A DNA stretch of 64,000 bases from Cirrosporium novae-zelandiae (taxonomy: Eukaryota), in contig JAPETS010000011.1 of NCBI GenBank assembly GCA_026023565.1, forward strand, positions 620,001 to 684,000, read 5' to 3'. Below are positions 4,399 to 38,600 of this stretch, piece by piece. Under the pieces are notes generated by a model. That model was not told the DNA's origin, searched no databases, and saw nothing but the letters and a program-made list of their open reading frames with translations. Position numbers and translations under genes: made by a program. Every line of letters begins with the position of its first letter. Position 1 is the first letter of the stretch.

Positions 4399-4689
4399 AC
4401 TGTGCGTCTTGGTTAATCGCTGTGAAGCTCATAAAGTGAGAGCAACTTTGGCTTATTAAAAAGTGGCATAGAGGAAAGGCGTACACTAAGAGCGATAGCA
4501 AAGGGACACATTGACAAATGACAAGAGAATGGATGCATGGCTACAAATAAAATCTCTAGGAATAAACCCATCTTCTTCTCAGTCCCTTAAAGGCTGCATC
4601 TGAACCAGAGGTTGCTGGCCCACATATCAAATTAGTGTTGGCTTCGCCCTTCGATCACTATTCGTCTATACTAGGATTTCCCACTTGTG

Positions 4690-5870: not shown

Positions 5871-5905
5871 TGTCCTTAGCCATTATCTTCGCTCTCCTAT
5901 CCACA

Positions 5906-11592: not shown

Positions 11593-14500
11593 TCACTCTA
11601 TCCAATTAAGATTCCTCAAAATTGCTCCCGTCTCTGGCGACCCCAACCCGCTAACCCCCAGCGCTCTAACCTGCCTCCCCCTTCTCAACCGTTGCAGCCC
11701 AACGGCAACCTTCCACCCTTCCTCTTGAGGCAAAATAAAGACATACTTCTTGCCTTCTTGATCTCTGATGCTTGCTCGAAGCACATGCAAGCCTGCTAGC
11801 TCCCCGCTCTGCGAGGAGGAAATCGAGTTGGCATCATCATCGTCATCATCTCTGGAAAAATACGAGGCACCCGAAGCAACAGAACGTGCATGAGAGGGAC
11901 GAGAATTAAACGCATTTTTGCAGCACTGCTTGCACACGCCCGCCAGCTCGTCGACGAAAAGTTCCGATTGTTCTTGGCTGGGGAGGGCTTGTGCAGCGGC
12001 GGCGCGGTTGTGGCTTGCGCCGCTAAAGAATGTGGCACGGCGGCCAGGGCTTGAAACGGATGAAGAAGAACTTGAAAATGCGTTTTTGGAGCCAGTGCGC
12101 GCTCCCATTGTAGGACACCATACCTCTACCAACTTCATTGTCCATGCCTTGATATCCCATTCTCGCTCTTGGATTTTGCGTACGTCGTCGTCAATAAAGA
12201 GACCTTCAGATTCGATGCGTAGGACGAGGCCCTCGCTGACGCTACCTTGACCTGCTAATATCCGTGCGACCGGAGTTTTTACGCGAGCATCATTGAAGAG
12301 ATAAACTCCTTTAATAACAATCTTCTCGGGGTCTTTCGTGAAGTAGGGCCCTTCGTACCTCGGAGGTGGGCGGACCGTAGATTCCGAAGGTGCGTAGATA
12401 GACTCGGGATAAATTGATGTCGTCGCAGATGTTGAACTGCGGACAGTTCTGGCTCTAGGAATATCGTACGGTCGAAATGAATATTCTGATTCCTGGTCGG
12501 TAACACTTTCTGCTTGTGCGGACACAATACGTGACTTTTTTTGCGGTGATGGGGATCTCAACTTGGGATCAAACATCTTCTTGGGAGTGTTTGGTGTAGT
12601 TGGAGTGGTAGATGAAGATGCTCTCTTCTGACTTGCCTTTGCCGCTGCTTCCTCCCTGGCCTTCGCTTCTGCCCTAGCTTTATCTGCCTTGGCCTTGGCT
12701 TCCTCCCAGGCTTTGGCACTTGCTCTGGCCTTTGCTTCTGCGGCTTCTTTCTCTGCTCTGGCTTTTGCATCCGCCGCCTCCTTTTCTTCCCTTGCCCTGG
12801 CTTCTGCTGCCGCCTTTTCTTCCCTAGCCCTGGCTTCTGCAGCTTCTTTTTCTCTGGCCGCTTTTCGTTGTGCCTCTCTCTCTTCTCTTTCTTTTCTGGC
12901 CTTCTCGAGAGCTTCTCTCTCGCGGACCTCTTTCTCCCTCTGCGCCTTTTCTCGTTCTTCCCTTTCTTTTGCTTCCCTCTTTTCACGGGCCTTTTCCTCA
13001 ACCAGCTCGGCCCATTTTTGGCGAGCCTTTTCTTTTTCCTCTTCTTCTTTTCTTCGCAACTCTTCTTGCCTCGCTTCTTCAGCTTTTCGCAGCTCTTCCA
13101 GTCTTGCTTCTTCTGCCCTTTTTCGTTCTTCTTCAGCCTTTCTTCGCTCTTCTTCACGTCTCCTCGTCTCTTCTTTCGCTTTCTCCCAGGCGGCCTTTGC
13201 ATTGTCAGTGATAATAATATTCTTAGGCTGGGGGCTACTCGCTGCCGTCGATGGTTTAGGGCTTGCTGGGTTGGGGCTCGCGGGTTTAGGAGGTGGCCTC
13301 TGCCATGTAGATTTGGGAGCTGGCCGAGTGTTAGCCTCAGGTGTTGCTGGCGTAGGAGCGGGTTGTGCACTTGATGAAGGCTCAGCAAAAGCTCCAGTAG
13401 CTGAAGTTGCTCCTGCTGGAGTACTTTCTGATGCTGGTGGCTCTGTTTTTGGCAGGGGGGGTGCTGTTGAGTTAGCAGAAGGACCTTCAGCAGACGCTGA
13501 AGCAGACGTTGACGCAGACGGTAATGAAGTGCTAGGAGTGACATTTGCTTGAGGGATTGCTGGGGCTAGGGCTGGGGCAGAAGGGGTTGCAACAGGAGTA
13601 GGTTTAGACGCTGAAACTGAAGCAGGTGCTGGTGGAGGTGAAAAAGCAGATAGTCCTGGTTGAGGACCTGTATTAACACTAGTAGAAGGCCCTGGTGGGC
13701 TTGAAGCAGGAGTAGAAGCATTTGGCGCTTGTTTTGGAACCGAACCTGAATTTGCATGTTCATTTCCGGCATTTGTGCCTGTTTGGTTTGTATCATGAGG
13801 ATTCGCAGGTGAAACCTTTAGACCAACGCTCAATGACGGAGGACGAATAAAAGCCTCTGCAGCAATTTTTGTATATGAGTATGGTGTGGAACGCGAAGGA
13901 GATTTTACTTCAGCTGGAGTAAAAGACTCAGGCTTCGCCGCAATAGCAGGCGCCGAACTCGACGATGCGCTAGACTCAAGAGCAGCAGCTTTGGGGACCT
14001 TTGGAGTTTTTGGAGTCTTTGAAGGACTCTTGGAACCCTTGGTACCAGCACGACGCTTATGATGAGTTTTCTGCTTTGGCGCAGGTTGTGGAGACTCAGA
14101 AGCAAGTTCCACCTTGTCCGACGGGGCTTCAAACTTGGGAGTTGATGGGGGAGGAGCAGTATGCGAAGGCTCAACCTTTGGAGGAGGAGCATTTGAAGGC
14201 TCGACCTTTGGAGGAGGAGCACTTGAAGGCTCAGCCTTTGGAGTAGATGGACGAGCAGTATTCGGAGGCTCGAATTTTGGAGGAGCAGCATACGATGGCT
14301 CGAACTTTGGAGGCGGTGGTGAAGCAAACGTGGGCTCAAATTTTGGTGGAGGTGAAGTATATGAAGATTCGAACTTTGGAGGTGGTGGGGAAGTATGCGA
14401 CTCAAAATCAGGAGGGGGCGCAGAAGCATTCGGTTCAAAATTAGGAGGAGGCGGGGGTGCACGCGACTCAAAATCAGGAGGCGGTGGAGGAGGTGGTGGA

Positions 14501-15267
14501 GGGAATGGACGAGATTCAAACTTCGGAGAAGGTGGAGGAGACGGGGGGCGTGGAGGGGGAGCCGAATGAGCATGCGCAGAACTAGAAGATGGTCCTCCAC
14601 TCCCGTAGCCCCCTCCGGGTGGAGGTGGTCTTGGAGGTGCATCGGTGAAGTCGGCAGCAGATGGGCCTCCTGGATTGTATGAACCTGAATATGACGCTCC
14701 TCCAGGCGGAGCACCTGGATGCGTCCGATTTCGAGCTCCACCTGGAGGTGGTCCTGCTGAAAATCCACCAGTAGGTCCAGCTCTCGCTCCGGGATGACCA
14801 CCCGTACCTGTCGGCCCTCCAGCTGTAAACCCATGTGGACCTTTGGGAGTACCACCAGCTGGTCCATTATTTCCGCCATTTGGTCCATGGCTATCTGTTT
14901 GTATTTTACCCATGGCCCATCCCATAACTCCTACGCCAACCACAATAACAATGTATACCAGGCCACCGGTTGGCATTCTGCGAACAGTCTCTTTCACAAA
15001 GGGCCCTATGATAGACCATATTGCGACAACTGTAAGTGTACAGGCGACACCGGCGAGAAAACTATTGCGTTGAGTATTCATTGAAGGCAGGTAAAGAAAA
15101 CCTCCTCCACTAGAATGTGGTGGGATGATGAAGATATCATAATTGCCTGGAGGTAGTCCTCCCGGCCCTGAACCCGGACTAGGTTCTCGGGGAGGGATTG
15201 GACCGCCATCTTCATCCTTGGGGTTCTCCCCATGAGGTGGTGGGGGAGGCGGCGGAGGGTCATCCAT
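11593..15267 (-). CDS. Hypothetical 1224-aa membrane-anchored protein with Pro-rich repeats, an E/K/R/A coiled coil and a C-terminal globular domain
   Basis: Single long ORF. Two hydrophobic segments near the N-terminus (FLAGVACTLTVVAIWSIIG; GLVYIVIVVGVGVMGWAM), Gly/Pro low-complexity region, ~200-aa charged helix, and complex C-terminal sequence (KIVIKGVYLF...GLVLRIESEGLFIDDD...EWDIKAWTMKLVEVW). Confidence 0.9.
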   Translation of the reverse strand: MDDPPPPPPPPHGENPKDEDGGPIPPREPSPGSGPGGLPPGNYDIFIIPPHSSGGGFLYLPSMNTQRNSFLAGVACTLTVVAIWSIIGPFVKETVRRMPTGGLVYIVIVVGVGVMGWAMGKIQTDSHGPNGGNNGPAGGTPKGPHGFTAGGPTGTGGHPGARAGPTGGFSAGPPPGGARNRTHPGAPPGGASYSGSYNPGGPSAADFTDAPPRPPPPGGGYGSGGPSSSSAHAHSAPPPRPPSPPPSPKFESRPFPPPPPPPPPDFESRAPPPPPNFEPNASAPPPDFESHTSPPPPKFESSYTSPPPKFEPTFASPPPPKFEPSYAAPPKFEPPNTARPSTPKAEPSSAPPPKVEPSNAPPPKVEPSHTAPPPSTPKFEAPSDKVELASESPQPAPKQKTHHKRRAGTKGSKSPSKTPKTPKVPKAAALESSASSSSAPAIAAKPESFTPAEVKSPSRSTPYSYTKIAAEAFIRPPSLSVGLKVSPANPHDTNQTGTNAGNEHANSGSVPKQAPNASTPASSPPGPSTSVNTGPQPGLSAFSPPPAPASVSASKPTPVATPSAPALAPAIPQANVTPSTSLPSASTSASASAEGPSANSTAPPLPKTEPPASESTPAGATSATGAFAEPSSSAQPAPTPATPEANTRPAPKSTWQRPPPKPASPNPASPKPSTAASSPQPKNIIITDNAKAAWEKAKEETRRREEERRKAEEERKRAEEARLEELRKAEEARQEELRRKEEEEKEKARQKWAELVEEKAREKREAKEREEREKAQREKEVREREALEKARKEREEREAQRKAAREKEAAEARAREEKAAAEARAREEKEAADAKARAEKEAAEAKARASAKAWEEAKAKADKARAEAKAREEAAAKASQKRASSSTTPTTPNTPKKMFDPKLRSPSPQKKSRIVSAQAESVTDQESEYSFRPYDIPRARTVRSSTSATTSIYPESIYAPSESTVRPPPRYEGPYFTKDPEKIVIKGVYLFNDARVKTPVARILAGQGSVSEGLVLRIESEGLFIDDDVRKIQEREWDIKAWTMKLVEVWCPTMGARTGSKNAFSSSSSSVSSPGRRATFFSGASHNRAAAAQALPSQEQSELFVDELAGVCKQCCKNAFNSRPSHARSVASGASYFSRDDDDDDANSISSSQSGELAGLHVLRASIRDQEGKKYVFILPQEEGWKVAVGLQRLRRGRQVRALGVSGLGSPETGAILRNLNWIE

Positions 15268-17201
15268 CTTTGATGTTCTTCAGAGTTCAAAGCTCGGGCC
15301 TTGTTGGTTATTTTTTCCAGAATTGACTGCAACTGAGACAAGTTGAGGGAAAGAATAAATTAGCAAAGTCGTCTGTAGAGGAGATGGGTAGATATCAATC
15401 GGTGCTTCATGGTAGAAGCTTTCGACTTATCACAGGTGGCGAGAAGTAAATATTAAAGGAGATATTGGAGGTTCGGTGGGGGGGGGCGGCGCTCGTTGTT
15501 TGAGAAAAGACTTGTTCTGGAAGGTCCTGCGGGTGACATGAGCGGTGAGCTTTTGACATTTCTGCGACGATGATTTGATTACGATCATACACTCAAACAA
15601 ATCAATTGGATCAAAGTTGGAGGGAGATTTTTTGGAAATTTCTGTTAAGTAAAGGCATTGAGGGTTAGTTGATGAGAATGATTTCATCCCATGTGAGGGA
15701 GAGAAGTAGTGGAGGTCGGATGGTTGTACCGATGGAATCCCACATCAAAGCAACCGATCCTTGTCCTACTTGTTCTTTCTTTTTCTCTCTCTCTTCTTCT
15801 TCTTCCTCCACGATTAATTGTTGACTATATAAAGCATCACCCAAATCCAAGATAATAGAATGGATCAGGGATAGAAATTTGTCGTCAGAGTTATAAGGGT
15901 ATTTCGGATGGTGAAGGATGGGGGACGCAGAGCTTCTTTTTTTTTTCGCACAAAGACTGTTTTGTTGACTAGTCCTTGTAGAAACGGAAAGCTTCTTCTT
16001 TAGAGGGAAAATTCATCAACACACGCACACACGCACACACGACACACACGACACAGGGAACCACAAGGCACCACAGGTACCATAGCAGAGTTAAGTTAGT
16101 TACCAACTGGATATTCCTTGGGAGAACCAGCAGAGAGAGAAAGAGGGGAATTTCTACTCTTATTTTCAAACTTTACACGTTGCCTGTTTGTTGACGCTAC
16201 AGAAGACTAAGGGAGGCAGTTCAAGTGATAATGAACCAATGTTGGAATGGGATTTCATTCATTGTTTCCCATAGGTTATAGGGTCGAGGATCACTTTCTC
16301 CAAGAGTGGAAATGCATTAGGCGCTGACGAATCACCCAGGTAGAAATTGATTCCTTTACAGGATTGGCGGGTGATGAGAAGTTTCGGTGACAATTATCGC
16401 CTACCTAATTTCTAATTAATCAATGTTCACAGAGCCAAGGGAATCCTAGAAGGAGTGAAAAGTAAAAGAAAAAAGTAACATATAATTTACACAATGGGAG
16501 ATATATCTATCTAGGTCTCCCATATTGTATTTTTCTTTGTTTGGATGAGGGGGAATTTGTTGTTTACACGGGTCGGCTCGTGCATTAACTCCCTTCCTAC
16601 GTAACTACACGTTTCGGTTGGCCGGGGGGCAGGAGGGACGAGGTTTTGTTGAGAACACCTTTGGCACCAACGGAAGTTTGCATCACTTTGCATCGCTTTG
16701 CATCACTTTGGTAAGCCTTAGACGCTGCACTAGAGCCTGAAGGTGTGCATTAGACTTGCTTTAGGTGTGCATTAGGGTTATCTTGTCCCCTTTAGGCTTG
16801 CATTAATCCTCCATTAACCCTTGTCATCTAACGGCATTGGGTTACTCCGCACCTTGAAGAATCCACTTCATTTTATCCAACCATCTGGAACCCGATATCG
16901 CTCATCTTTTACTCCACCCTGCCCTTGATCCTGGGCCCGATTATACCTCGAGGCCTTTATCACTGTTGTTTTAGAGTAGTTACACATCAAACCGTCAGCC
17001 GAACACCCTATCATTATTCACATCCTAGCATTTGATGAAATCGCTCTCTTTCATGGCCTAGGTAGTAATAGTTACGTACAATTGTGTCCCTCCTTCTATC
17101 CAAGTCATGGGACGAAAACACCTAACCCTCAACCTCTGCACAGATCTCCGTATCCCTCGAGGATGATCTGATAACTCTCCACTCCACCGTTTACGCGGAA
17201 A

Positions 17202-19372
17202 ATGCCGGAAGCTGTACGTCACTCTAACGAACTAGAAATGGACGATAGGAAGCCCACGGACTCCAAACCCTCAGAGGAACGGCCTCTTACCTCTGATGGA
17301 GGGGATAACTCTTCCATCCTCCAGGGCGAAATGACAGATCAATCAACTGAACCGACCTTAATTTCGCAACGTCGTTTGAACAGCTCTCGCGACCCCCGCC
17401 TCGAACGAAGAATCGTTCGGAAATTCGACCTCTTCCTCCTCCCGTTTCTCTGCATCCTATTCCTCCTCAATTCGCTCGATCGGTCGAATATTGGAAATGC
17501 CGAGACAGCAAACTTCACGAGGGATGCGGGACTGCAGCCAGAAGACCTGAATACGGCCGTGGCATGCTTCTTCACATTCTTCGTCTTGCTGCAGCCCGTG
17601 GGCGCTGCGGCTGGAAGAAAGGTCGGGATGGCGAGATGGGTGCCGTCTGTTATGGCAATTTGGGGTCTATGCACTGCGCTACATGTCTGGATTAATAAAC
17701 GATGGCAACTAATAAGCGTCAGAATACTGATCGGGATTCTTGAAGGTGGGTTGGATCCTTTTTTTATAGTCTTTTTCTCTTGAGTCTACAGTGCAACAGT
17801 TTTAGAAGAATCAAGTTTTGCATCCATCGCCCTCAAGCACGTCTGAAGAAAATGTGAAGAAAAGAAGAAGAACAAGAAAAAGAAAAAAAAAATCCCAGTA
17901 AACCAGTCACTAAAACACTTGTCCAACCTATGCCTCCCAACAAGAAAACAGCAGGCTAATCCCATCTCACAGCTGGCTTCTACCCGACAACAGTATCCTA
18001 CCTGTCCCTGTTCTACACCCGCTACGAATTCGCACGGCGCCTAGGATTTTTCTACGGCCAATATGCCATCGCCGGCGCCGTGGGCGGAATCCTCTCATTC
18101 ATCGTATTTTCCTATTTCCCCCCCTCATCCTCCCCAGACACCCAACCCCCCTCCAACGCAAACCCACTTCTCTCTCGAGCCGAAGGCGATTCCAACATCA
18201 ACGGCGACGGCTGGAAAAGTTGGCAAGTGCTATTTCTACTCGAGGGCGGCCTCACGATCCTGATAGCGCTGGTGGGATTCCTGTGGCTACCGCACAGCGC
18301 GGGGGACGCATGGTTCCTAAACCGCGAGGAGAAAGAATACGCGGAATGGCGTATCCAGGAGGATAGAACCGCACAAGATATCGACACGACCACCTTCTCC
18401 GACGAAGAATCCTTAGGAGAAGAAGAAGAAGAAGGAGAAGAAGCCTCATCAGAAACCTCGCCTCTCTATCAAACCGACGACACCTCAAGCTCCCAGCTCT
18501 CACCACTGCTTCTAACGCCCAGCTCAACAACCACCCAAACCTCAACCCAATCCCCACCACCACCACCACCACCACCACAAACCGACCACGGCCTCCCGGT
18601 CTCCTCAATAATCTCAGCACTCCTCTCCCCGCACATCTACCCGCTACTAGCACTAAACATCCTCTCCTCGATCCCGAGCACAGCCTTCAGCATCTTCCTG
18701 CCGCTAATCCTCACCGACCTAACGCCCAACTCCCCGTACCTCTCGAACCTCCTAACAGCGCCACCCTTCCTCGTGGGCTTCATAACCCTCCTCCTATTCA
18801 CGCACTACTCCGACACATTCCACAAACGCCTAACCCCCCTCCTCCTCTCCCTAACTTTGCTCCTAACCGGCCTTTTACTAACCCTCCTGCCCCTCCCCCC
18901 CCTCCTACACTACCTCTCCCTCCACCTCCTCCTCGCAGGGACCTTCATCCCCTCCCCGCTAACAATCGCCTGGCTAACCGACAACACGCCCTCCCCCTCC
19001 AAACGGGCCCTCCTCCTCGGCATCAACGGCTGGGGAAACCTCGCAGGGGTATTCTCAGCACTCATCTTTACACCCGATGCCGCCCCACGGTATACGAGAC
19101 CACTGTGGCTGACAGTGGGGGTCACGGGGGTGGCGTTGGTGGGGTTTGGGGGATTTAGAAAGGGGGTTAGGTGGGAGAATCGGTGGAGGGAAAGGGTTTT
19201 GAGGGGGTGGGGGAGGGAGGGGAGGGAGAAGGAGAGGAGGGAGGGGAGGGGACCAAGAGCGGAGGGAAGGGTTAGAGCTCTTGTCAGAGGGTTGGTGGAG
19301 AGGTGGGGTGGGGAGAATGTTTCCGACGCGAGGGAGGGCGATGAGAGACTTACGTTTGTATATGGGCTGTAG
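17202..19372 (+). CDS. MFS transporter, allantoate-permease/anion:cation symporter family
   Basis: Exons 17202-17745 and 17973-19372. Motifs RIVRKFDLFLLPFLCILFLLNSLDRSNIGNA, RILIGILEAGFYP, YLSLFYTRYEFARRLGFFY, WKSWQVLFLLEG, AWFLNREEK. Confidence 0.92.
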
Positions 19373-21850: not shown

Positions 21851-23784
21851 TCATGTCTCTCTATAGCCCCAGGCTGAAGATTTAGTCCCTGCGCAAGCAT
21901 AGCGGATGCTAGTCTTTCCAAACTCCTTCCCGCTGTGGAAAGCTTTGAACAAGAGAGCGCCTGTCTTGTCGCCAATAGTAACTTGAACTTCATAACAGAA
22001 CTCCCAAACTTTACAGCTGTTTTTGTCGACAGTGGATTCAAGATTAGCCAGGTTTACTTCTCTGAAATCAACATCTAGCTTTCCTACAACTTCAACACGT
22101 TCATCTGAGAAATAGTCGGGTGCTTCTTCCGAATTACAGGAAACAAGAGTAGCTGAAAAATGTTTATCGTCTTGTTGGTAATGATCCCTAGAAATATGTA
22201 TCGTATTGATAGTGTCTCGAGTCAAGATATCGCCCTAGGAGATATAAGAATATAAGCCGTTTCGAGATCATAATTTATGTGCGAAACAGAGAGACATACC
22301 TTCGGAAATTTCCAACTCACGCGATTCCGGGCATATTTACAGGGATAAAATAGGGAAACGTAACTAAGATTAGGGTCATCAATCCCTTCGCGGAAGCGCA
22401 TGCTCATCGCTATTCCATAGTGCCGACGGCATCTCCATTTAGTAACTAATGATCCCTCAAGGCCATTGAGGGCTGCTCCTCTAGAAACCGCAGACCAGGG
22501 ATGATCAGGGGTCATGAATCTAAGTCCCCCATTTTGATTGCACCATGCTTTCATTCGTTTCCAGAGATAAGGGGAACTTCCAAGTCCACCAACCAAGATA
22601 ATGGTTTTAATACTTGTAGAACCTTCTTTTGATGTTGCGGTAACCTGCTGTGAGACAAGGTCTTGGATTTTATCAATGATAGGATCAAAACAAGACTGGA
22701 CATCTTGATAAGAGAGTTGTATTTCGCCTTCTTCAGGGTCATAACCTCGGCTATTAAAAAAGCCTCTCGTGAAGTTCTTCATTATCAATCGTAAGGGAAG
22801 AATCGTAGTCGAGCTGTCACCATCAAAGCTTTTCTTGACGGACTCAAAGTCGATCATAACCCTGCTTCCGGGCCCGGTTTTAGACATTGGCAAGTTCGTG
22901 AAAGCTGGTCCGTAGCGCTTAGCCAATAAATCACGGAGATTGCGATCAATGTATGTGGCACCGCATTTCCCTCCGATGCCAACACATGCTTCTTCCAATT
23001 GTAAGGAAGGATCCAGAGCAACTACCACATAGCTTGTGAGGTCAACGGTGCCTCCACCACAGTCACAAACTAGCACACTAGATCCCAGGTCAAGAACATT
23101 TGCTAGGTTAGAAGCAATGGATTTTAGGGCAGCATATGCAGCTGCCTCTGGTTCCTTGATCTGAAACACTTCATCACGGTCACGACTTCCAAAACCGGCT
23201 TTTTTGGCTGCTTCGAGGGTAGCGTCCTGGGCTTTTTCCGACCACATTGCTGGGACAGTACACCAGAACTCAATGGGCGTCATGTCAAGAAGGGGATTGA
23301 CTTCCCTAAGGCATTTCATAAGATGATTATACACGCCGGAAAGATAATCAGCAACAACATCAACTGCAGACTTGTTCGGGGGCAGTCCCAGCATACCACT
23401 CCCAATGCTGGTCTTGAGTGCTGGGTCGTCATAGTCTGTCGCCAAGGCATTCTCATCAAGTAGAAGCTTCATCCAAGTGTAATTGCGGTTACCCGGCTTG
23501 ATCTGGTATCCCCATTGTATATGCTGACGTTGGCTAGGATTGTCAAAGTCATAGGAAACTGCAGATGGCACTTTCTCCAGGTATTCGCTGCTTTTACCAG
23601 TGACACCACCTGGCCAATTTGTAATTACACGAACAAGGGCGTCAGTTGGGTTTTGCGAATTTATATACGCAATTCCTATATACTCATAAGTAAATCAGAG
23701 AAGAAGTGTAGAGTACTTTTACTCACCCGTGTAAGTTGTGCCGAAGTCCAGGCCAACGATGAGTTTGTGTCGATGTTGGACCAT
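21851..23784 (-). CDS. Atypical Hsp70-family (HSPA12-like) actin-fold ATPase
   Basis: ATG at 23784 begins MVQHRHKLIVGLDFGTTYTG (phosphate-1). Intron ~23726-23677, then IAYINS...ITNWPG...EKVPS, IKEPEAAA, VLVCDCGGGTVDL (phosphate-2), GGKCGATYIDRNL, ILVGGLGSSPYL, AVSRGAA. Intron ~22299-22236, then a beta-rich C-terminus with no EEVD. Likely 5'UTR intron ~23922-23803. Confidence 0.92.
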
Positions 23785-24306
23785 CTTTGCTGTTCTAGGA
23801 AGCTATAACCGAGACCAAGTTAGCGTCATTCGCTTCATAGACCTCGCCAAGAATATAAATATAGGAAAGGATAACAGCTGTGCAAGGTGAAGAAAATAAT
23901 GTTTCTTTGCATGTAACTCACGATTTGTTGTTATTTCTTCTAAGTCGATTTGATCTCCAGCTTTGACTCAAAATTTCCTAAGTCAGCAGTGCGGCTTGAT
24001 GTTTGAGTCGAGCTTGGAGAATGTGTGAGATGACTAGAAAAGATCGAGAATAGATGCAAGTAAGGTCAGTCAAGATGGATTTCCACACACTTAAGTAAGT
24101 TTGGTTGAAGTTCTTGGGGAGATAAATGCTTAGGTAACTGTGGCTAAGTGCGGGGTTGGAAAAATCAATAAAGCATTGAGGTGAGGATATGGTGAAAGCT
24201 CAGGAGTTACCTAAGGGACGCACAATCCCGATGCCTTTGTGTTAATGCCTTTAGTTTATCTGCCCTTCCTTTAACCTCAAGCTCCAATCATAGCAGCTCT
24301 GGAAAG

Positions 24307-25886
24307 ATGACGAATCACCATCATTCAACTTTCCATGAAACAGATTCGCAAACCACTAACTCTCACAACGAGCCTATTCATACCGAAGGCCAACAAGAAG
24401 GGTATAACTCTGAAAACTCTATAGTGAGCTCACATCAGATGGTTAGAGCCCCATTCCCAACACAGTGATTTGAATATCATGATATTATGATGCTAACAAA
24501 TGATAGGATTCAAGGACACCTCAAGGTCAGCAAGGCCAATCAACTCCAAGTCATTCAAATCGCAACTTGGACAGAGGCTCGCTCTTCTGGCGTGTTTTCA
24601 ATTACTTCTACCCTAGGTCTGATGGATTCAGCGATATGGCACAACATGTTGTAGATATAGAGCATAAGTATCAACGTCAAGATGAAGATTTTCAAAATCT
24701 AGTACAGAATTGCAATGCCTTGCAGCAGAAGCTAGAGGAAACACGAGACATGCTTTATTCCTTCCGTCACAAATATTCTGAGGCTACAACTACGATCGAT
24801 CGTCTCAAGAAGGAGATCCAAGAACAAGAGCTTCAAGTTAAAGGGGCTCAGGATATTGTATTCTCTCTTCAGCGCAGCCAAGCTCCGCAAGCGCTCGACG
24901 ATGACATGGTTAGGCAGAAACTTCGGATTGCGCTTGCTGGTTTGAAACCGTGGGCAAAGAAGTATGCTATAACTTCTCTTTCAGACATAAAGCAAAAGCA
25001 TAACAACGAAGCAGGAAGAAGCGTACTTTCTCAGATGTCTAATACTTCTAAAGGGCACCCGGGAAGCATTTTGCACAAAAGCCATTATTCTAAAGCTGGC
25101 GCGATCTTCTTAACTATGCTCTTAGCGGATTTTATTTGTGAATCAATTATACGCCGTCCTTTCTTCTTCCTCCATGAGGAAAGAAGCAGCATCACCCTTC
25201 GTAGCCACGGCTCTGGCATATTCAAGCTTGACCCCCCTCCTGGAGAAGCTCTCGAGGCTATCTTAACAAGTTGCAGACCAGGTTAGTTATCCAAATTAAA
25301 GGGCCTTTAAGATGATCTCTAATATCCGTCAATTCTAGAAGATAACGCGTCGACTCAAATCTGGCGTTCGGATACGCTTCGTCTCCTCGATCCCTTTTCA
25401 GACGGAAAGGATGACACAGCAAAAAAAAGGGCAGCAGGAATGACCGAGAGAAAGGAAAGCCAGTATAGAAAACTCGTGCGGGAGTTCCTTACAAAGTCCC
25501 AGGGTCGATTTTTCATAAAAGATATCTCTAAGCAGGAGACTCAAGAGTGCAATGCTGGGCTTCTTTCTATTTTCCACGCCGTCGGTGATGTTTTTACAGT
25601 TCTTCAGAGACAACGTGTCGAAATCACGCCCCATGGCCTCTACACACTTGGATGTAAGAATTTCCAGTCTACTAGCCCCCTTATGCAAGCGCATGCAGCC
25701 CATCTCCTTGACGAGAATGATACTAGGTTAGATGGAAAGCCTATACAGATGGTGGTTCAACCAGCAATTCTTGCTTGGGGAACTGAGGCAGGGAAGGACT
25801 ACGATCAGTATAAAGTTTGGGCGAAAGCTGTGGTTTGGGTTCTAGATGATCGTGTGAAAGAAGATGAAACGGACACCCAAGGCTAG
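24307..25886 (+). CDS. Hypothetical coiled-coil protein divergent from the Hsp70-like gene, with a possible GrpE-like C-terminal beta domain
   Basis: ATG at 24307. Introns 24424-24507 (GTGAGC..GCTAAC..TAG) and ~25282-25338 (GTTAGT..CTAAT..CTAG) keep the frame. Heptad region HVVDIEHKY...LQVKGAQD, motif WRSDTLRLL, C-terminus NFQSTSPLMQAH...IQMVVQPAILAWGTEAGKDYDQYKVWAKAVVWV. Confidence 0.85.
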
Positions 25887-27329
25887 AAGGGCCTCAATGA
25901 TCTCCTCTAGTCTACATTCTTGCCACATGGGCCGATGCCAACTTGAAGGTTTATACAATTTGACAACTCAAAAGAATGTTTATGGAAACCTCTGTTCACT
26001 AATATTATTGCATCCCTTTAACCTTCTTTCGTCGAGCACCGAATTTTGCTTGCTACAGCTTTGCCACTAGGGTTCGGACCTTTCGTGGAGGCTGTGGGGA
26101 CAACACAACACAATCATTCCATCCTACCACCTTTGCTCCATCGAGATAGAGCCTCAAGCAATACGAACAATCTCTCTCTAGATGGCATCTCCCATTCTCC
26201 AATTTTCCATTTTCTAATCTACGAAGCTCTCGTTCTCGCACTCGCGAAGTCTACAGCCTCTCCAAGTTTCTTCTACATCCCCAACCCCAGCTTCTTCCCC
26301 CGGCTTATCAAGTATCAACCAACCCTACCTTCTCAAAGCCCCAACGGAAAATGGTCATACCGTCAAACTCGCCTAGTCTTTTAAATGATCGCGAGCGGTT
26401 AATTCATGGCTGGTTTAGATAGCAAATGGCAACGCATTCACAAACTAGATCCAAGGTCAAGACACCCTAGGAATCCCTAGATCTTCCCCTGAAATTCATA
26501 TGTCCGCATTTCCAAGTTGTAAAACTGCTTCATCCTCCACATGAATAAGTAGGGGTATGTAGCGTCACTTATTTAGAGCCCTAGATAGCCACGCGGGGTC
26601 CCAAGATAGGCGGGACTCACCGATTCCTTTTTTTAAACAATTGTTTTTCCTAGCGAGACCTCAAACAAAATCAATTTTTATGTATTCCTAATCAACTTTG
26701 TTATTGAAATTGAAAACTCTGATTCTGTGTAAAGTTTAAAGGCTTCTCTCTAAAACCAATTTTCCCATTCCATGTTTTTTTGGATCTCTGGTCGGTTTTA
26801 TTTCTATTTCGTCGGGAATAAAATATTATACTAAGTTTACTACGAGTGATTGATTGATTGATTGGTTATATTATCGTTATTTGTAAATAATTGCTATTAT
26901 TATTGTTGTTGTTGTTGCGTTAATGTTATATTGACATATATATATACATTAGGACACCATTTAAATAGTGAGGAAACAAGTTTGTGAGTCCTTTTTTATG
27001 TCTTTTAGGAGTATATCACAATAATGCAGCTGAAAACTCTACATGCTTCCTTCCAGTTTCAAGCCCATCAACCTAACGACTTGACATCATTCTCAATTGT
27101 GAGGATGAGAAAACAAAAAAGTTTGCTCTAGGAGGGAAGGGGGATTATGTCGCTCGTTCTAATCCTTTGTCACATTGCCAGAGTGGGATAAGGAATATTT
27201 GACATCCCCCATTAGGCTGCTGATGAATGAACTAGTTCTAGTGTTTCTCGGGGGGGGGGGGCTTGATATGTGCAGATACCGAGTCCTCATACATTGGTGA
27301 TGAGAAGATCAAGCAAGTCTGTAGGTCTT

Positions 27330-27770
27330 CATGCGGATCACCAGTAGTGATTATTGTGGGAGAATTCTCTTTAATTTGGCTATGTGGAGGTGGACCAATG
27401 TCCGTTTCTGCGCCTTTCGTTATGGTTCCCCCATTTCGTCCGACTCCTCCCGCCTATGCACACAACGATATCTGGAGGAAAGTCGATTGTTTTTCTCGTT
27501 TCGTCGAGGTCTTTGATTCACCAGTAACACCCTGGACCAGTTAAGCATAACATGTAAGTGTAAGGAATCGTTATCATTATAACCTTATAGCTCGGTATGC
27601 GGAATTTAGTTAATCAAGTAGCCAGCCCCTCAATAACACGCGGTACAAATGCCAGGAATGCAAGACTAGTTTTAGTTTCTGCGAAAAGTGTGAGCATTCT
27701 TCTTCTCGGACGCATCCTAGTCATACTTTTAAAGCGATGGAGCCTAAGCAAGGAATGTATGAGGAAGGTA
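27330..27770 (+). pseudogene. Degraded gene relic containing part of a ZZ-type zinc finger
   Basis: From 27641 one frame reads RYKCQECKTSFSFCEKCEHSSSRTHPSHTF (CxxC..CxxC..H..H, ZZ-like). The first CxxC is not recoverable, upstream frames are broken, and the 3' end runs into a repeat fragment. Confidence 0.5.
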
Positions 27771-27846
27771 CGTTACAAGGACATGGCTACCCGCCAGTTA
27801 AAGCGAGTAACCCTATTTAGCTATATAAGCTGACTGTTCCGTAATA
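27771..27846 (+). repeat. Dispersed repeat copy 2, LTR-end-like
   Basis: Matches 10821-10892; most differences in the aligned core are C/T or G/A transitions. Confidence 0.7.
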
Positions 27847-28528
27847 GAAAACTTTAAATCTCGGCAGTCCTCCTTCAGCACAGTCTCTTCCATAACAGAT
27901 AGCTCTTTTAGAAGTTCAGAGAATAATCCCAATATATAGAATCACCTTAAATACTCATCATCAGCCATAATCTAACCAGAGGTGACAAAATATCTAGCAA
28001 CTGAGATATCCGCATGCGCCACAAGAGACTTGGGGAGGCTAAACGGACGGATCTAGCCGTACGACTTTCGGATCCGAATGCCACAATACTTTAACTCTAT
28101 AAAGGTGATAAAGGTCGAGTGATATCGATCTCCAGATGTAGTGCAAAACATCCAAGAAAGGGAAGGAAAGGTAAGGAATCAAACAAAAACCCTTCCCACT
28201 CAAAACCTAGAAAGGAAAAAATAAATAAATGACAAGGACTAGATATATGTAGATGCAAGGATGCAAACTCCACCAAGGGAGGGGGGGGGTCTGCTGTCTA
28301 CAGGGCGGGAGGACCTGATAGTGGAGAGGAGGGAGGGAAGGAGGGAGGGAGGGAGGTTTTAAGGACCTGTCTACGGGAGCTGCTTCGATGGAGAGAGCTA
28401 GGTGGGGAGGAGCAGACATTTAGATATTTGATTGATGAAGCTCATCTGATACAGTAAAAGGAATGTAGATCTGATTTAATCTCATGCGAGATCTCCCTCC
28501 GGTGGAGAAATCAAGCCTAGTACTATAC

Positions 28529-28805
28529 TGTGAAAGAGTTGTGGGCTTGGGCGTTTATATAGGCAGTTGGGGATAGAAATTAGGGCTGAGGAGCTGTTCG
28601 AGGGGAACTGGGAATTATATTGAAGCTTGCCTCAGGTGGTTGTCTACCTTAGGTTCTAGAAACCTAGGAAAGCCATATAAGGCTGGAGGCTTAGGACTAG
28701 CCCGAAAGGGATAGGGCTGATCCAGAAGCCTTAGGCACTATAAGTCGGAGCCTTAGGCCGTAGGGCTGATGCCTCAAGAAGCCAAAAATCGGCAACTCTT
28801 TCACA
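28529..28805 (-). mobile_element. Solo LTR of a retrotransposon (277 bp); a MITE is the less likely alternative
   Basis: Begins TG and ends CA. Perfect 13-bp terminal inverted repeats TGTGAAAGAGTTG (28529-28541) and CAACTCTTTCACA (28793-28805). 4-bp direct repeat ATAC on both flanks (28525-28528, 28806-28809). TATATAA on the minus strand near 28560. Confidence 0.85.
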
Positions 28806-30805
28806 ATACATATACAATCGCTATCTATGGTAACTATCATGTCATATCATAATGCAGGCCAGACCACGACCTTTGGGCCTGAAAGCTGACTGGGCATTCG
28901 TTGTTCGTTGTTCGTTGTTGAGTCACTCACTTATGTAGAACTAGACTAGTCTATATTTTATTTCTATGTATTCTACCTCTAAAAGGCTAAGAGGCCAAGG
29001 TAAAGATGAAAATGAAACTTTAATTTGACGTCCAAATGGACGAATGAACGAAAAGAAAGAAAAAAGGGAAAAAAGGCCATGAGACAGGATAGGATAGGAT
29101 AGGATAGGATAAGATAATAGATAATCAAATGCTTTACTTATATTTATAGTTATAACCACTCACCCTACCTGCTAGCCAATAGATATATATAGATACATAC
29201 ATACATACATACATACATAATAACCGACCAACCAAACCATCCACCATCTACAACTATAAAAAATGGGCACACACATTATATCATCACATCCAACCCATTC
29301 CAATCCAGCCCTTTTTCTTTCTACCAAATCAAATGAAATCAAATTACGGTGAGTATATAGTATGCATGCTTGTATGACTGGCTGTAGATAGGTAAGTAGA
29401 TCGGAGATGAAGAGATGGAATTGTGTTGTGTTGTGTTTGTTTTAATATTTAATATTTAGATAAGTTGGAACTACCTAGGTAATAAATAGGCTTGTGTGTG
29501 TAGGCTAGCTAGTGAGATTGATTTACTGTGGTAGTTATTATATGTGGATGGAGATGGGATAGCGGATAGTGGATGGTGGATAGGATGGGTAGGATAGGGA
29601 TGTCCAGGTGGGGTGACGAGTGGTGGATGGGTGGTTAACTTAGCTACATAGCTGGGTACTAGGTATTAGGTATTAGCCATCAAGCATCAGGTATGGGGAT
29701 TGAATGATATATCACTACCTCTGATAGATGGATGAATGAATGAGTTGGATGGGGCCTTAGGACTTATAAAGAATAGATAACAAAATAACAAAAACAAATA
29801 AATAATTTGTGAAGGTTGAATGGAAAAATAGAAAAATGAATAAGATGTGATTACATTTTAAATAATTACCTATCTCCTGAACTGTCCCGGAGGGAGCTAT
29901 CACTAGTAATTAAGGGATGTCATATAAGGATTAACTATAATAGGTCAGATCACTGTTTTCAGGCAGAACCACTGTCGGCATTAAACTTCATTGCTGAGTC
30001 AAATACTATGCCTCAAGATCTTATCTATCATTATTATCAGTCCTTCTTCAAGTTGGTGAAGTGAGTGAAACGATCTCCCTGGATTGATAATACTATTATT
30101 ATGAGGATGGATGGATGGATGGATGGATGGGATATGAATATTAGTAAGTACTACGTCAATGAATTTAATTATCGAAAACGACAAAGTTGGAATAGGATCT
30201 ATCTACAGAGTTTGAGGTGGTAATGGTTATTTTGGCCAATTGAGGGAAGGCATGTCTCTGGAGTTAGCTTAGATTACTACAACTTGATTCTTTACTGTAA
30301 GCAACAGCACCGCTGTTTACGTATGTATACATCTACCATGCCAGGAGCCCATCATCGATCGAATGAATATATAAATATTATACCTTCTATCGAATAAAAA
30401 AAAAGCTACCTAACGTGGGTCATTGACTTGGGGGGAGGGATAAAATCTGGCCTGTTAATTCCCATTTCCGCCCTCAAAGCCCATGCGCCAAAAGTCCCAC
30501 TTCTTTATCCCCCAAGTATCCTTCCTTCCCTCAGAATGTACATGATATAAAACGCCATATGCTCGGTGTTGGCGTAATCAGAACTGGCTTCAAGTGCTAG
30601 ACGACAACTGTTTCTAATCAAAACGGCTGCCAAACTCTCAACCGTTATATCTTCAGAGAATTTTAAAAAAGAAAGGGCGTAGAATGCAAAATGATCGTTT
30701 CTCATCTTCAGAAAATAGGGTGTATCACCCGTTATGTGGCCAAAAAAAGGAGGCCGTGTCGTTGTGCTAGATACAGGTTGAATGAAGTACAATTGATGTT
30801 GTCCG

Positions 30806-33800
30806 TTAGTGACCTTCTGAAGCGACACTGGCCGATGTGTTCCGCTTTCCCCAGCCACTAAAGAAGCCACCTCCTGAAGAACTTGTTGTTGATGGCTGGG
30901 GTGGTGTGAGCTTCGGAGATTCCGATGTTGCCCTTGAAAGACTTGACATGAACAAGGTTGGCGAAGGTAGCGGGATATTATTGTCGCTAGCAAAGCTAGG
31001 GCGATGATTGGTTATTATGCCATTGGCATTTATCATCTTCTTTAATGCATCCAGCTTTGCTTTAGTTTCCTCCAGCTCCCCTTTCGCGACGGCTTCGGCA
31101 GTTTTTGCATTCACAAGTTCCACAAGCAGCGTATCATCCTCAGCAGGTCTATTGTTCTCGGTTGATAGGACAGCTTGTGTGCTAAGACTGCTGGTACGTT
31201 TGGAATATTGGATTTGGGAGGTGGCTTTGGAGCGAGTTGATGCAGTTCTTCCAAGTCGAAGTTCTCGAAGTCCATTGGTGGAAGACCGGCTATCTAGACT
31301 ATCACTAGATTGGGAAGTTGGACTGTCAGCGCTGCTACCTCTTCTTGATGGCTTGCGAGATCGCAGCTCGTAGATAGTTCTCTCAAGGCGTTGACGATCG
31401 CGGTAATCATCCTGAAGGCGAGATCGAGCTTCTCGAAGTTCTTCCCTTAACTGGTTATTCTTGTGCTCTTCTTCGCCGAGACGCTGAGTAAGATCTAGGC
31501 GGCGGGAAACTTCAATATTATGCTGCTCCTTCCAACGGGTCACATCATCTCGTAATTGATGTTTTGTTTGTAGAATTGACGACCTCCTAGCATCTCTAAG
31601 AGAAAATCTTTCTTCGGCCTTGGATAGAGCAGTATCGAAATCAGCTGATGTAGGACTCTCCGGTATATTTATTAGTTCTTGCTGGGTTAGACTATCACGA
31701 GGGTTTCGAGCGAACTGGGGCTTTACAGCCTTAATCTGAATTAGAAGAGTGGTGATGACTCGTTGGTCTTCCTCACGTTCTTCTCTTTCTTTTTGTAAGT
31801 CACTTGCAAGCTGTGCTTGTTCTCGTTGCATGTCACTCAAAGCAGTAAGCAAATCTTCAATCTGTAGATCCTTGTCCTTGGCTGATGACATTGCGCTTCG
31901 AGCTCGGGTATTTAGGGTTGATTGTTTATCGGATATTTCAATTGGCGATTGAGAAATTTCAGTTGCGACCGTACTGGCATTGGATTCGAAGCTGCTCTCT
32001 GAAGAGTTGAGCGTCGATGCCATGCTTTGCTTTGATGGTGTCCTTCGCAAGATGCTAGTTGGTCTTGAAGAGGCTGAAAGCGGAGGCGAAAGATTCATTG
32101 ACTTGGAAGAATTATGAGAACCTGCCCAGAGTCGGCCGAGGAACCTTGATGCAGCAGCTTGTATATCGGCCAGGCCACTGATTTGCTTCGGAAGACCTTC
32201 ACGTTGCGCAAGCTTAAAATTTGCTTCCAGTGCTTGTAGGCTTTCACGTGTGACAAGCCCAGTTAGGCTGACAAAGTCATTCACGAGATCATTAGCATTA
32301 GACGCATAAGTATCCCATAGACTTCGAGAAAGGAGAAGATGCATAACATCTTCTAATTCATGGCAGCCTAAGATTTTTTCTTCGTTGCGTTTCATCAATG
32401 ATAGCGCGACCCGCATTAGTGTTTCGGAAGCTCCCTCAGCCAAGAGAACATCGTAGATTCTCAATAACATGGGTAGTGGGCAAGTGACTGCGAAGAAGGA
32501 TAAAAACCATTGCGATACGTATACAGGTTCAATTTGAAGATGGTCAAGGTGACTGGCAAGCTGCGGGAGGAAGTGATTGAGGAGTTGTTGGAATTGATAG
32601 ATACGAAGGTGGAGGCCTGACAAGTCAGGAAGAAAACATGATCGTAGATCATAATGCTCCATCAGCCTAAGATAGTTAGTGCAAAGCAGCCAGTATAGGA
32701 GATAGATGATCATACCTTACTAATACGCAAAAGGCCTCTTTGTCGGTCATATGCATCAATAGAGGTCCCACTACAAACCCCAAACCTTGGCAGTATCCAA
32801 TCTTGGAGTCATAAACACTGAAACATTTCAGAACACTGGCTAGCATTCGTTGACCTTCGCCGCCTGGTTCCCGGAACATCTCAACGCCAGGGAAGCTCCT
32901 CCCGATATCCTTACCGATCAGTCCTTCATAGGGGCTGCTCTGTTGACTGAGTTGATCAAACTCATCTTCCAACATTCGATCTCTTGCACCGGCAATACTA
33001 GACCAAACGACGCCCCTCAGAGGAGGAGGGATACCAGCACGGATTTTGTTGGAAGTCAGAGTAGGTAAACGGTGAGCAGTCTGGGGATAGTCGGCAACCA
33101 GCGCTGCCCAGAATTCTAATTCTGTCATAGGAGGAGGTGCAGGGAGCATCGAAAACCTAAGAGAGGATGATCTTGATTCGCTGACAAGGCGCTGGAGATG
33201 ATGTATCGAAGGAGGCCGCGATTGGCTTCGCACACGTGGTTGCTGTGCCAGGCCAGCTTTGGGATCAGTTTCAAGAGCCTGGTTTTCCTGTTCAAGCCTT
33301 GCCAGAAGCAATGCGGTCGACTATAGTAATTAGCGGGGGTAGACAACCTCAGGTACAACTTGCAAACCTCATCCGAGGTGTCATCTCGTGACTCCTGTTC
33401 CTCAGTTTTGTCCAGTTCAACCCAATCCACAGATGTGCCTGGCCCAGAAGATCCTGTACGAGTAGTACTGCCGCTGCTACTTCTTGATCGAGGATCGCTA
33501 GCAGCGTTCTCTTCTTCTTGAGCACCATTCTTATCCTTTGGCTCTTCTGTTGGTGTCTTAGCTCTTGAATCCTCTGATCCATGACCCTCCTCCGACTGAT
33601 CTGTATCTACAGGGGTTTTGCAATCCTCCTCTTCAGGTCCAGCTCGTTCCTCTGGGATTGAAATCTTCAAATCATTTTTCGGACTTCCAAAAACATCGGC
33701 AATATTTCCTCGATTAACGGGCGATTCACCCAGTAATTTGTACATGTTTGGTGACATAGGAGGGCTTGAAAGTGGTACGGTAACCATAGAATCAGTAGGA

Positions 33801-35631: not shown

Positions 35632-38600
35632 ATGGATTCCATACTGGATGATTCCATCTTTGACGCGGCTGAGGATTCTGATGATTTCGCGCCTGAACCA
35701 GTACAGGTAAATCCATACTGACTTGTCAAGTGTCGACTTTTAAACTGACACCTACGGATAGAAACCGAAGAAAGCCACCAAAGCCACCAAAGCAGCGCCA
35801 AAGAAAGCTGCAAAAACAACTACCAAGAAGATGACCCAAACAACTCTCAAGTCTACCAAAGCGAAGAGCGCATCTTCAAAAAAGCGCTCTAAACCAGAAA
35901 CCGACGACGATAACGATGATGCAGCACCGGAACCGAATGGAGATGATGAATCATTACTATTAGATACCCCGCCAAGTGAGAAGAAAAGGAAGAAGAACCC
36001 ACCTGCTGGGCGCAAGGGGACTGGTAAAGCTTTGCATCCAGTAGAAAACGATGCAATGGGGCTGGATGGAGCCGATGACTCTAAATCAAAAGCCAATAGC
36101 TCATCGGATCAATATCAAAAACTCACTCAACTTGAACATATCTTGAAGAGACCAGACACATATGTTGGGTCCATCGAGCATGACAAGAGGCCAATGTGGG
36201 TTTACAACTCGGAAACAGAGTCAATGGAAATGCGTGAAGTCAACTTTGTACCTGGGTTGTACAAAATCTTCGATGAAATTCTTGTGAACGCTGCGGATAA
36301 CAAGCAAAGAGATAAGAACATGGATACCATCAAGGTAACAATCGATAGAGCAAAAGGAGAAATAAGTGTTTATAACAACGGTCGAGGGATTCCTGTCGAG
36401 ATTCATGATGTAAGGATTCCTCTCTTTTTCTTTGCAAGCAATTACTAAGTGATATTGTACACAGAAAGAGCAAATTTACATCCCTGAGATGATTTTCGGT
36501 CATCTTCTTACGTCATCAAATTATGATGATGAGCAACAGAAGGTCACTGGTGGAAGGAATGGATTCGGAGCAAAGCTCTGTAACATATTTAGCACAGAGT
36601 TTACCGTCGAAACCATTGATTCACGGATGAAAAAGAAGTACAGGCAAACCTGGACGGACAACATGAGCCAGATGGAGAAAGCCAAGATCACAGTAGCAAA
36701 AGGAGACAGTTATACAAAGATCATTTTCACACCAGACTACAAGAGGTTTGGTATGGAAGGAATTGATGACGACTTCGAAGCTCTTGTCAAACGCCGAGTT
36801 TATGATTTGGCTGGTACTGTCAAGGTTTCTGTGCACTTAAATGGAGCCAAAATTACTGGAGTTCGTAACTTCAAGAAGTACATGGAAATGTACACCAAAG
36901 CTATCAAGATGGAACGTGGAGAAGAGGCAGTGAACGATAGCACAGAGATTGTCACTGATAACCCTGACCCGCGCTGGGAGATTGGATTTGCTGTCTCTGA
37001 TGGTTCCTTTCAGCAGGTGTCATTTGTGAATTCAATCGCAACAACCTCTGGAGGGACTCATGTCAACTACATTAGCGACCAGATTTGCACCAAACTTCTT
37101 AGTATCGTCAACAAGAAGAACAAGGGTGGTGCAGCACTCAAAGTCCCCCAAATCCGAAACCACATATTCCTCTTCATCAATTGTATGATTGTCAACCCAG
37201 CTTTCAATTCCCAGACCAAAGAACAACTTACGACCAAGTCAAGCCAGTTTGGAAGCAAATGTGTTCTTAGTGATCAATTTCTCAACAAGATTGCAAAAAC
37301 GCAGGTTATTCTAAATATTCTTGACTTTGCGCAGAGAAAGGCAGATCAAATCTTGAGAAAGGGTGATGGACATGGCCGCAAAAGAATCTCCAATGCCAAG
37401 TTGGTTGACGCTAATAAAGCTGGCACCAAAGATGGGCACAGGTGTACATTGATCCTGACCGAAGGAGAATCAGCCAAAGGTTTAGCTATTGCTGGTCGAG
37501 CTGTGGTTGATCCAGATCTCTTTGGAGTATTCCCACTTCGAGGCAAGCTTCTCAATGTTCGTGATGCCTCTGTCGATCAAGTGGCCAAAAATGTCGAAAT
37601 CCAGAGTATCAAAAACTTTTTTGGTCTACAGCACAAAAAGCAATACGCTGATACCAAGGGCTTACGATATGGCCATTTGATGATCATGACCGATCAAGAT
37701 CACGATGGAAGTCATATTAAGGGGCTAATTATCAACTTCCTTCAGGTTGCTTTCCCAAGCTTGTTGAAGATTCCCGAATTCCTTCATGAATTCATTACTC
37801 CAATCGTCAAGGTTTATAAGGGTGACCCCAAGAAACCAAAGGCAATGCACTCATTCTTCACGATACCAGAGTACGAATCATGGATAGAGGAGCATGGGCA
37901 TGAAAAAGGATGGGAACACAAATACTACAAGGGTCTCGGAACCAGTACAACCCAAGATGCTCAAGTATATTTCCGAGATCTGGACAAACATCTCAAGGTC
38001 TTCCATACTATGCAGGACGAAGAAGCACCCTTGATTGAACTAGCATTCTCGAAATATAAGGCAGATGAACGAAAGGAATGGCTTCGCCAGTTCAAGCCGG
38101 GAACTTATTTGGATCATTCAGTCAAGGAGATCACGTATCATGACTTCGTCCACAAAGAACTTATTCTTTTCAGTATGGCAGATAACATGCGATCTATCCC
38201 GTCGGTAGTAGATGGTTTCAAGCCTGGCCAACGCAAGGTGATGTTCACTAGTTTCAAACGCAATCTCAAGAAAGATATAAAGGTGGTGGAACTTGCTGGT
38301 TTGGTATCAGGGCTTACTGCTTACCAACACGGTGATGTGTCCTTGCAGCAAACAATTGTTGGGTTGGCCCAAACTTTTGTTGGGTCGAACAACATCAACG
38401 TTCTAGAACCAAGCGGGAATTTCGGTAGTCGGCTTCAAGGAGGCAGTGATTGTGCATCTGCACGTTACATCTACACCCGTCTCTCCCCTTTTGCCAGGAA
38501 GATCTTTCACCCTGCAGACGATCCTCTATTGGTTTATAACGTCGATGACGGCAAGAAGATTGAACCAGAAATGTACATTCCTGTGGTTCCAATGGCTCTC

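Follow-up and report, generated by a model that had tools for sequence, protein, structure and literature searches.

The divergent gene pair

The stretch analysed here, referred to as the window, comprises 64,000 nt of Cirrosporium novae-zelandiae (contig JAPETS010000011.1, positions 620,001 to 684,000 of the forward strand) and carries one copy each of two divergently transcribed genes, the first encoding a predicted HSPA12-like ATPase of the Hsp70 superfamily and the second a coiled-coil protein to which we refer as the partner. The splice models of both genes were derived from the raw sequence and then compared with deposited proteins. The ATPase gene occupies 21851..23784 on the minus strand and encodes 605 amino acids in three exons (23784-23727, 23675-22300 and 22234-21851), with its start codon at 23784-23782, its stop codon at 21853-21851 and two introns, 23726-23676 (51 nt) and 22299-22235 (65 nt), both of the GT-AG type. 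The partner gene occupies 24307..25886 on the plus strand and encodes 485 amino acids, likewise in three exons (24307-24441, 24507-25281 and 25339-25886, with the stop codon at 25884-25886), which the splice model separates by introns at 24442-24506 and 25282-25338. The two models equal the deposited proteins P0003 (ATPase) and P0001 (partner) residue for residue, and both genes are confirmed as real and intact.

The start codons are separated by 522 bp (23785..24306), in agreement with the divergent orientation and the distance of about 520 bp given in a preliminary description of this locus, and we presume that this interval acts as a bidirectional promoter. A scan for heat-shock elements (GAAnnTTCnnGAA, at most 1 mismatch) gave 0 matches within 23785-24306, and over the whole window 23 matches were observed where 26.8 were expected.

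The minus-strand gene encodes a predicted HSPA12-like ATPase

Residues 158-424 of the ATPase match positions 138-372 of the 599-position Pfam HSP70 profile with 28.4 bits (cut-off 20.6), so that the canonical substrate-binding domain is absent from the match, which ends at profile position 372. No Pfam family was matched by the C-terminal 127 residues, and the protein ends in ...WGYRET, without the EEVD motif. In an alignment of 49 sequences D13, G15, T16, T17 and K54 show no variation or are conserved to 90% or more, and the same holds for E194-P195-E196-A197, D224-x-G226-G227-G228-T229-x-D231 and G382-G383, and we take these residues to be the phosphate-1, connect-1, phosphate-2 and adenosine motifs of Hsp70. 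Judged by its sequence, the protein is an HSPA12-like ATPase with a predicted Hsp70 nucleotide-binding fold and intact ATP-binding motifs that has neither a canonical substrate-binding domain nor EEVD; the intact motifs and the lack of EEVD had been noted in the preliminary description.

A word-indexed search returned at least 414 relatives of the ATPase at E ≤ 1e-10, and the best 120 of these, which come from many ascomycetes, are mostly 550-650 amino acids long and 39-48% identical to it, with more than one Hsp70-like protein in several of the species. Two such paralogues occur in Arthroderma sp. PD_2. Some relatives are called ‘heat shock 70 kDa protein 12A’ or ‘Heat shock protein 12B’ by their sources, and kinship of the fungal ATPase to metazoan HSPA12A and HSPA12B is drawn only from these automatically assigned names. 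The fungal and metazoan proteins share the Hsp70 nucleotide-binding fold with its conserved ATP motifs, depart from canonical Hsp70 in their C-terminal part and lack EEVD, and the bivalve HSPA12 and fungal HSPA12-like families are both multi-copy. To our knowledge no partner gene has been described for animal HSPA12.

The partner belongs to a large Ascomycota family of its own

No Pfam family was found for the partner (P0001), which gave only weak coiled-coil noise, and 71 relatives at E ≤ 1e-3 contain no Pfam domain except sub-threshold coiled-coil matches. A phmmer search with the last exon (181 amino acids) against 1.84 billion representative proteins returned 480 proteins at E ≤ 1e-3, of which 150 reach E ≤ 1e-10; one of the matches, the immunoglobulin-repeat protein P0210, was rejected as a false positive. 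Full-length relatives (414-599 amino acids) share the whole architecture of the partner, and in one subfamily a basic, low-complexity, disordered tail of ∼170-250 residues follows the C-terminal domain and ends in a KKRK-like sequence, examples being the protein of the metagenome locus L002 described below (5113-6123, plus strand) and P0131, P0140, P0141, P0143, P0150, P0158 and P0173. Relatives with the domain at the N-terminus were considered as a separate architecture and rejected, as they are either fragments covering the last exon of such genes or members whose basic disordered tails are long; these relatives show no similarity to the ATPase. The sequence comparisons thus describe a large, fast-evolving and unnamed family of Ascomycota without a Pfam model. 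Its dermatophyte members (Trichophyton/Arthroderma) include at least two paralogues, for instance TRV_00987 and TRV_07789 in T. verrucosum, and Ophidiomyces ophidiicola has a well-conserved copy across many isolates.

An AlphaFold2 model of the partner computed from an alignment of 88 sequences reached a mean predicted local distance difference test score (pLDDT) of 80.8 and a predicted template modelling score (pTM) of 0.68, while the single-sequence prediction (pLDDT 44.2) was unusable. In this model a disordered N-terminus (residues 1-69) is followed by a long helix of 84 residues with high pLDDT (residues 86-169; 24627..24878, plus strand), which is probably a coiled-coil, and hence oligomerisation, segment. 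Structural matches of this helix are coiled coils only, and it would suit a dimeric coiled coil. The globular region begins with a helical part (residues 177-392; 24900..25604, plus strand, spanning the intron 25282-25338) of ∼10 predicted helices over ∼215 residues, which contains the family-conserved W194, P263-F264, W312-R313 and L392-W393. It continues into a small C-terminal beta region (residues 398-471; 25620..25841, plus strand), in which six short strands (398-402, 419-421, 438-444, 446-450, 461-465 and 467-471) are modelled with pLDDT values of 95-98 and which carries the family-conserved H422, P445, G451 and Y458 together with W464 and V469. A helix closes the protein after the last strand. 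The model and the sequence thus bear out the long coiled coil, the helical middle and the C-terminal string that the preliminary description had read from the letters, the string itself being present in the partner. Sequence and profile searches of the PDB with the partner gave coiled-coil noise only; one family alignment reached a best E of 0.45, and another matched myosin, hemagglutinin HA2 and similar proteins.

A cytosolic location of the two proteins, also put forward in the preliminary description, stands as plausible, because the fold of the ATPase begins as early as residue 8 and the partner has a polar, acidic N-terminus.

The head-to-head arrangement is conserved in distant fungi

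Metagenome contigs from the Joint Genome Institute (JGI) were scanned with a 7-sequence alignment of the partner C-terminal domain, which yielded 2 loci, and in both the arrangement of the window recurs. In L001 the ATPase gene runs from 8253 down to 5943 and the partner gene from ∼8.8-9.2 kb to 10534 on the opposite strand, and in L002 the ATPase gene runs from 3714 down to 1493 and the partner gene, again on the opposite strand, from 3774 to 6123. At the level of DNA the two genes are therefore head-to-head in 3/3 loci.

We also compared by name the partner relatives that had been looked up with the best 120 of the at least 414 Hsp70-like proteins. Twelve species are common to both sets; the other looked-up relatives, which are the majority, come from species outside the best 120 or are nameless, and thus fall outside the count. 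Adjacent locus tags were found in Endocarpon pusillum (GJ744_009994/009995), Aspergillus felis (CNMCM5623_002076/002075) and Vezdaea aestivalis (M1814_004280/004279). In Aspergillus cavernicola the identifiers differ by two and the contigs have the same length (167,460), and equally long contigs are the only indication in A. carlsbadensis (233,061), Mollisia scopiformis (298,824), A. unguis (1,110,383), A. undulatus (1,121,189) and Talaromyces proteolyticus (3,162,851), as well as in one further pair that is not counted among the 12 species (126,180). For two of the 12, A. udagawae and Trichophyton interdigitale, linkage cannot be told from the names, and the last species, A. multicolor, is taken up below.

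The linked partners are only ∼22-40% identical to that of the window, and the taxa presumably span several ascomycete classes, judging by the names of the organisms; gene order is rarely kept at such divergence. Across 11 putative pairs the similarity matrices of ATPase and partner track each other (Mantel r = 0.94, with 1 of 5001 permutations as high), a correlation that is confounded by the phylogeny of the species, and the partner diverges far faster than the ATPase (normalised bit scores of 0.05-0.33 versus 0.31-0.68). That the pairing is more than a chance neighbourhood, and that the two genes form a dedicated pair, is strongly supported by these observations. The preliminary description had proposed such a pair from a single locus, and the 3/3 loci at DNA level and the adjacent locus tags in 3 fungi bear this out; the survey of gene neighbourhoods that it had called for shows the linkage kept across fungi, in 2/2 metagenome loci and, by locus tags, in 3 species. 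As the head-to-head pairing persists in distantly related fungi, the ATPase and the partner probably work together.

A dedicated ATPase and partner, or a shared promoter alone

On balance we lean towards the view that the two genes constitute a conserved divergent module of filamentous ascomycetes in which the partner forms oligomers and serves as an adaptor or scaffold, or else represents a new type of cofactor, with the nucleotide cycle of the ATPase acting on or through the partner. The shared 522-bp region would co-express both genes, and the products would act jointly in the cytosol, the coiled-coil protein being the dedicated partner of the ATPase. As an oligomeric adaptor or scaffold, the partner would have its assembly or its binding of clients controlled by the ATPase cycle; in the alternative role, it would serve the ATPase as a cofactor of a class not seen before.

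Several points weigh against this interpretation. In one of the 12 species, A. multicolor, the two listed proteins stand on contigs of differing size. Equal contig size is a proxy for location on the same contig and no proof of it, and the linkage counts by name rest on 120 of the at least 414 Hsp70-like matches. The similarities of the partner to GTPase-fused proteins and to the Mieap and GIL1 families, which are described below, were all obtained from a single automatic service, which set predicted models against predicted models, and count as leads only. Finally, adjacency could persist through a shared promoter without any physical interaction of the products, and this leads to the alternative that survives best, namely that a bidirectional promoter or the duplication of the cassette is by itself what keeps the genes together and that their products act independently. 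We regard this as unlikely, if worth serious attention. Binding and co-expression of ATPase and partner are inferred only, divergent pairs with a shared promoter are common in fungi, and both families are multi-copy (two partner paralogues in T. verrucosum, two Hsp70-like proteins in Arthroderma sp. PD_2), all of which a promoter or a duplicated cassette would accommodate. However, the arrangement survives down to the low partner identities given above, across what are presumably several ascomycete classes, a distance over which gene order is seldom maintained, and the parallel similarity matrices of the two proteins likewise speak against products that act independently.

Structural leads to GTPase-fused, Mieap and GIL1/IRKI proteins

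We searched the ESM Atlas with residues 300-485 and then 170-485 of the partner, and the matches listed after its own Ascomycota family were, in order, Basidiomycota ‘G domain-containing’ proteins (MMR_HSR1 in 73% of members; template modelling (TM) score 0.66 with 264 aligned residues over 170-477), plant DUF641/GIL1_IRKI_C proteins (TM 0.51, 208 aligned residues) and arthropod Mieap proteins (TM 0.47, 191 aligned residues). A language-model feature search gave the GIL1/IRKI and Mieap families as the nearest named clusters, with scores of 0.82 and 0.77. TM scores of ∼0.5 and feature scores below 0.9 are leads only, and the structure and feature searches count as one source of evidence.

Going by the highest-scoring of these leads, Basidiomycota seem to carry the globular region of the partner in fusion with a GTPase domain. 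In those proteins, as in the fungal pair, a nucleoside triphosphatase (NTPase) would be coupled to the same module, the difference being that the GTPase is fused in cis whereas the Hsp70-like ATPase is encoded by a neighbouring gene; the Basidiomycota proteins are known here from an automatic cluster description only. The metagenome locus L001 also carries, directly downstream of the partner gene (11122-12253, plus strand), a gene for a P-loop GTPase with a long coiled-coil tail and a weak match to Pfam AIG1 (E 2e-4). The apparent fusion in cis speaks for a design in which an NTPase is the switch and a coiled-coil protein the output module, rather than for an exchange factor specific to DnaK. 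An analogy of design is found in the prokaryotic CoCoNuT systems, in which Hsp70-like units reportedly act together with coiled-coil proteins and with a GTPase (PMC11090510). CnuD of the CoCoNuT type III restriction systems differs from the fungal pair in being prokaryotic and nuclease-linked and in having degenerate ATP motifs, whereas the fungal ATPase has intact motifs and no nuclease is seen with it; the analogy extends to the design only.

The Mieap and GIL1/IRKI matches raise the possibility, which is a special case of the adaptor or scaffold interpretation, that the partner is the fungal counterpart of animal Mieap (SPATA18) and plant GIL1/IRKI, that is, a self-assembling coiled-coil scaffold whose structured C-terminal region is hydrophobic, either condensate-forming or bound to membranes or lipids, whose assembly and disassembly would be controlled by the ATPase. 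We consider this doubtful. The two TM scores point to it, and the feature search names the same families. Mieap/SPATA18 (PF16026), GIL1/IRKI DUF641 (PF24994) and the partner alike combine a disordered region, a coiled coil and a structured C-terminal region, so that the fungal family shows the order of elements of Mieap, and one of its subfamilies has the long basic disordered tails described above. Mieap itself is described as having two coiled coils (residues 92-311) flanked by intrinsically disordered regions, a C-terminal half that is structured and hydrophobic, and a basic disordered C-terminus (PMC10845071). Against such a kinship, the partner matches neither Pfam profile: MIEAP (PF16026) and GIL1_IRKI_C (PF24994) were found in 0/40 members at E ≤ 10 and in 0/71 relatives at E ≤ 1e-3, and both are absent from the 11 families listed for P0001 and from the 25 most frequent of the 165 families listed for 88 members. 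The similarity scores are, moreover, in the range of leads and come from the single source of evidence named above, and in the text of the Mieap paper neither Hsp70 nor HSPA occurs (PMC10845071). The literature searched gave no link of the Mieap or GIL1 families to Hsp70-type ATPases.

A broader proposal is that HSPA12-type ATPases are not classical chaperones and instead form the NTPase switch of an ancient eukaryotic module that also contains a coiled-coil scaffold. In the present fungi this scaffold would be the partner family, homologous to Mieap and GIL1/IRKI, and in Basidiomycota it would be fused to a GTPase instead. We hold this to be improbable and mention it for its consequences, as the scaffold would then be a dedicated partner of a new kind for the Hsp70 superfamily, and the function of HSPA12 as well as of the Mieap domain would for the first time become accessible.

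No detectable homology of the partner to GrpE

The preliminary description had likened the C-terminus of the partner to the beta-head of GrpE, the exchange factor of DnaK-type Hsp70s. GrpE consists of a disordered N-terminus, a long helix, two short helices and a small C-terminal beta region. With GrpE and Mge1 (PF01025) the partner does have in common the genomic pairing with an Hsp70-superfamily ATPase and a gross order of elements in which a disordered N-terminus leads into a long helix, further helices and a small C-terminal beta region, as seen in the AlphaFold2 model on the side of the partner. It differs in length (485 versus ∼200 amino acids), in its presumably cytosolic location and in the absence of any sequence, profile or convincing fold similarity.

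The Pfam GrpE profile (PF01025) matched none of the exon translations of the window at E ≤ 1, 0/40 members carrying the partner C-domain at E ≤ 10 and 0/71 partner relatives at E ≤ 1e-3. In hhalign the partner profile gave a probability of 0.08% against E. coli GrpE, and three alignments of the partner family gave 0.07-1.4% against a profile of 31 GrpE sequences (E. coli and 30 from Pseudomonadota genomes). A forced global profile-profile alignment does reproduce the motif register that had been noticed by eye, yet with a score of 5.9, a P of 0.26 and a probability of 0.16%, and by these measures the pattern is no better than chance. The comparison of structures gave no match to GrpE either, though less firmly so for the small beta region. 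A Foldseek search of the partner model against the PDB gave no match at E ≤ 1e-3; in a wide VIA-align search with the model of all 485 residues, coiled-coil matches to residues 81-171 took up the results and the C-terminal region was barely probed, and the ESM Atlas searches with residues 300-485 and 170-485 brought up families other than GrpE and no GrpE cluster. The match of P0001 to GrpE itself in the PDB search (3a6m_A, E 1.5) lies inside the coiled coil only. Where GrpE has a short helical hairpin that builds a four-helix bundle, the model of the partner predicts ∼10 helices over ∼215 residues (177-392). The profile comparison and Foldseek search that the preliminary description had recommended thus turned up no similarity; all the measurements made point away from GrpE, and the label is not supported for the partner.

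A divergent GrpE-type exchange factor, which would dimerise through its long helix and insert its beta-head into the nucleotide cleft of the ATPase for the release of ADP, is accordingly the least likely of the explanations and a very improbable one, for all that the order of elements, the genomic pairing and the forced motif register agree with it, given the Pfam and hhalign results, the domain-level structure search, the size of the helical region and the apparent fusion of this module to a GTPase, for which an exchange factor of the DnaK type would have no use.

Significance

Returning to the dedicated pair that we favour, no publication on the two genes or on the partner family was found in a literature search that covered main texts, with supplementary tables lying outside it, and none was found for the locus tags of Trichophyton members of the partner family. 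A 2026 review describes the function of HSPA12 as still unknown (PMC13580251). What the present data suggest is an ATPase of the Hsp70 superfamily whose dedicated partner, linked to it in the genome, would fall into no known cochaperone class. That this partner keeps its head-to-head place beside an HSPA12-like ATPase even in distant ascomycetes offers a tangible and testable lead on the function of HSPA12. Should the partner represent a new class of cofactor or client scaffold, the repertoire of Hsp70-superfamily machines would widen, and should the link to Mieap and GIL1 hold, three orphan families would be connected across kingdoms.

Surroundings of the pair in the window

No J-domain, GrpE, BAG or GTPase gene adjoins the pair in the window. 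The neighbouring genes are ordinary ones: at lower window coordinates than the ATPase gene lies a major facilitator superfamily (MFS) transporter gene (17175-19369, plus strand), and beyond the partner gene lie a gene for a RabGAP-TBC protein (30809-33320, minus strand) and a fragment with a HATPase_c domain (35762-36445, plus strand). The interval 26400-30500, a stretch of ∼4 kb downstream of the partner gene, contains no open frame of at least 110 codons on either strand and could hold intron-rich genes or non-coding DNA; the GC skew at 28-30 kb is +0.22. An uninterrupted open frame of 1228 codons at 11593-15279 (minus strand) has no Pfam match at E ≤ 1e-3 and sits in DNA of higher GC content (0.50-0.51), with a strong AT skew of -0.29 at 12-14 kb.

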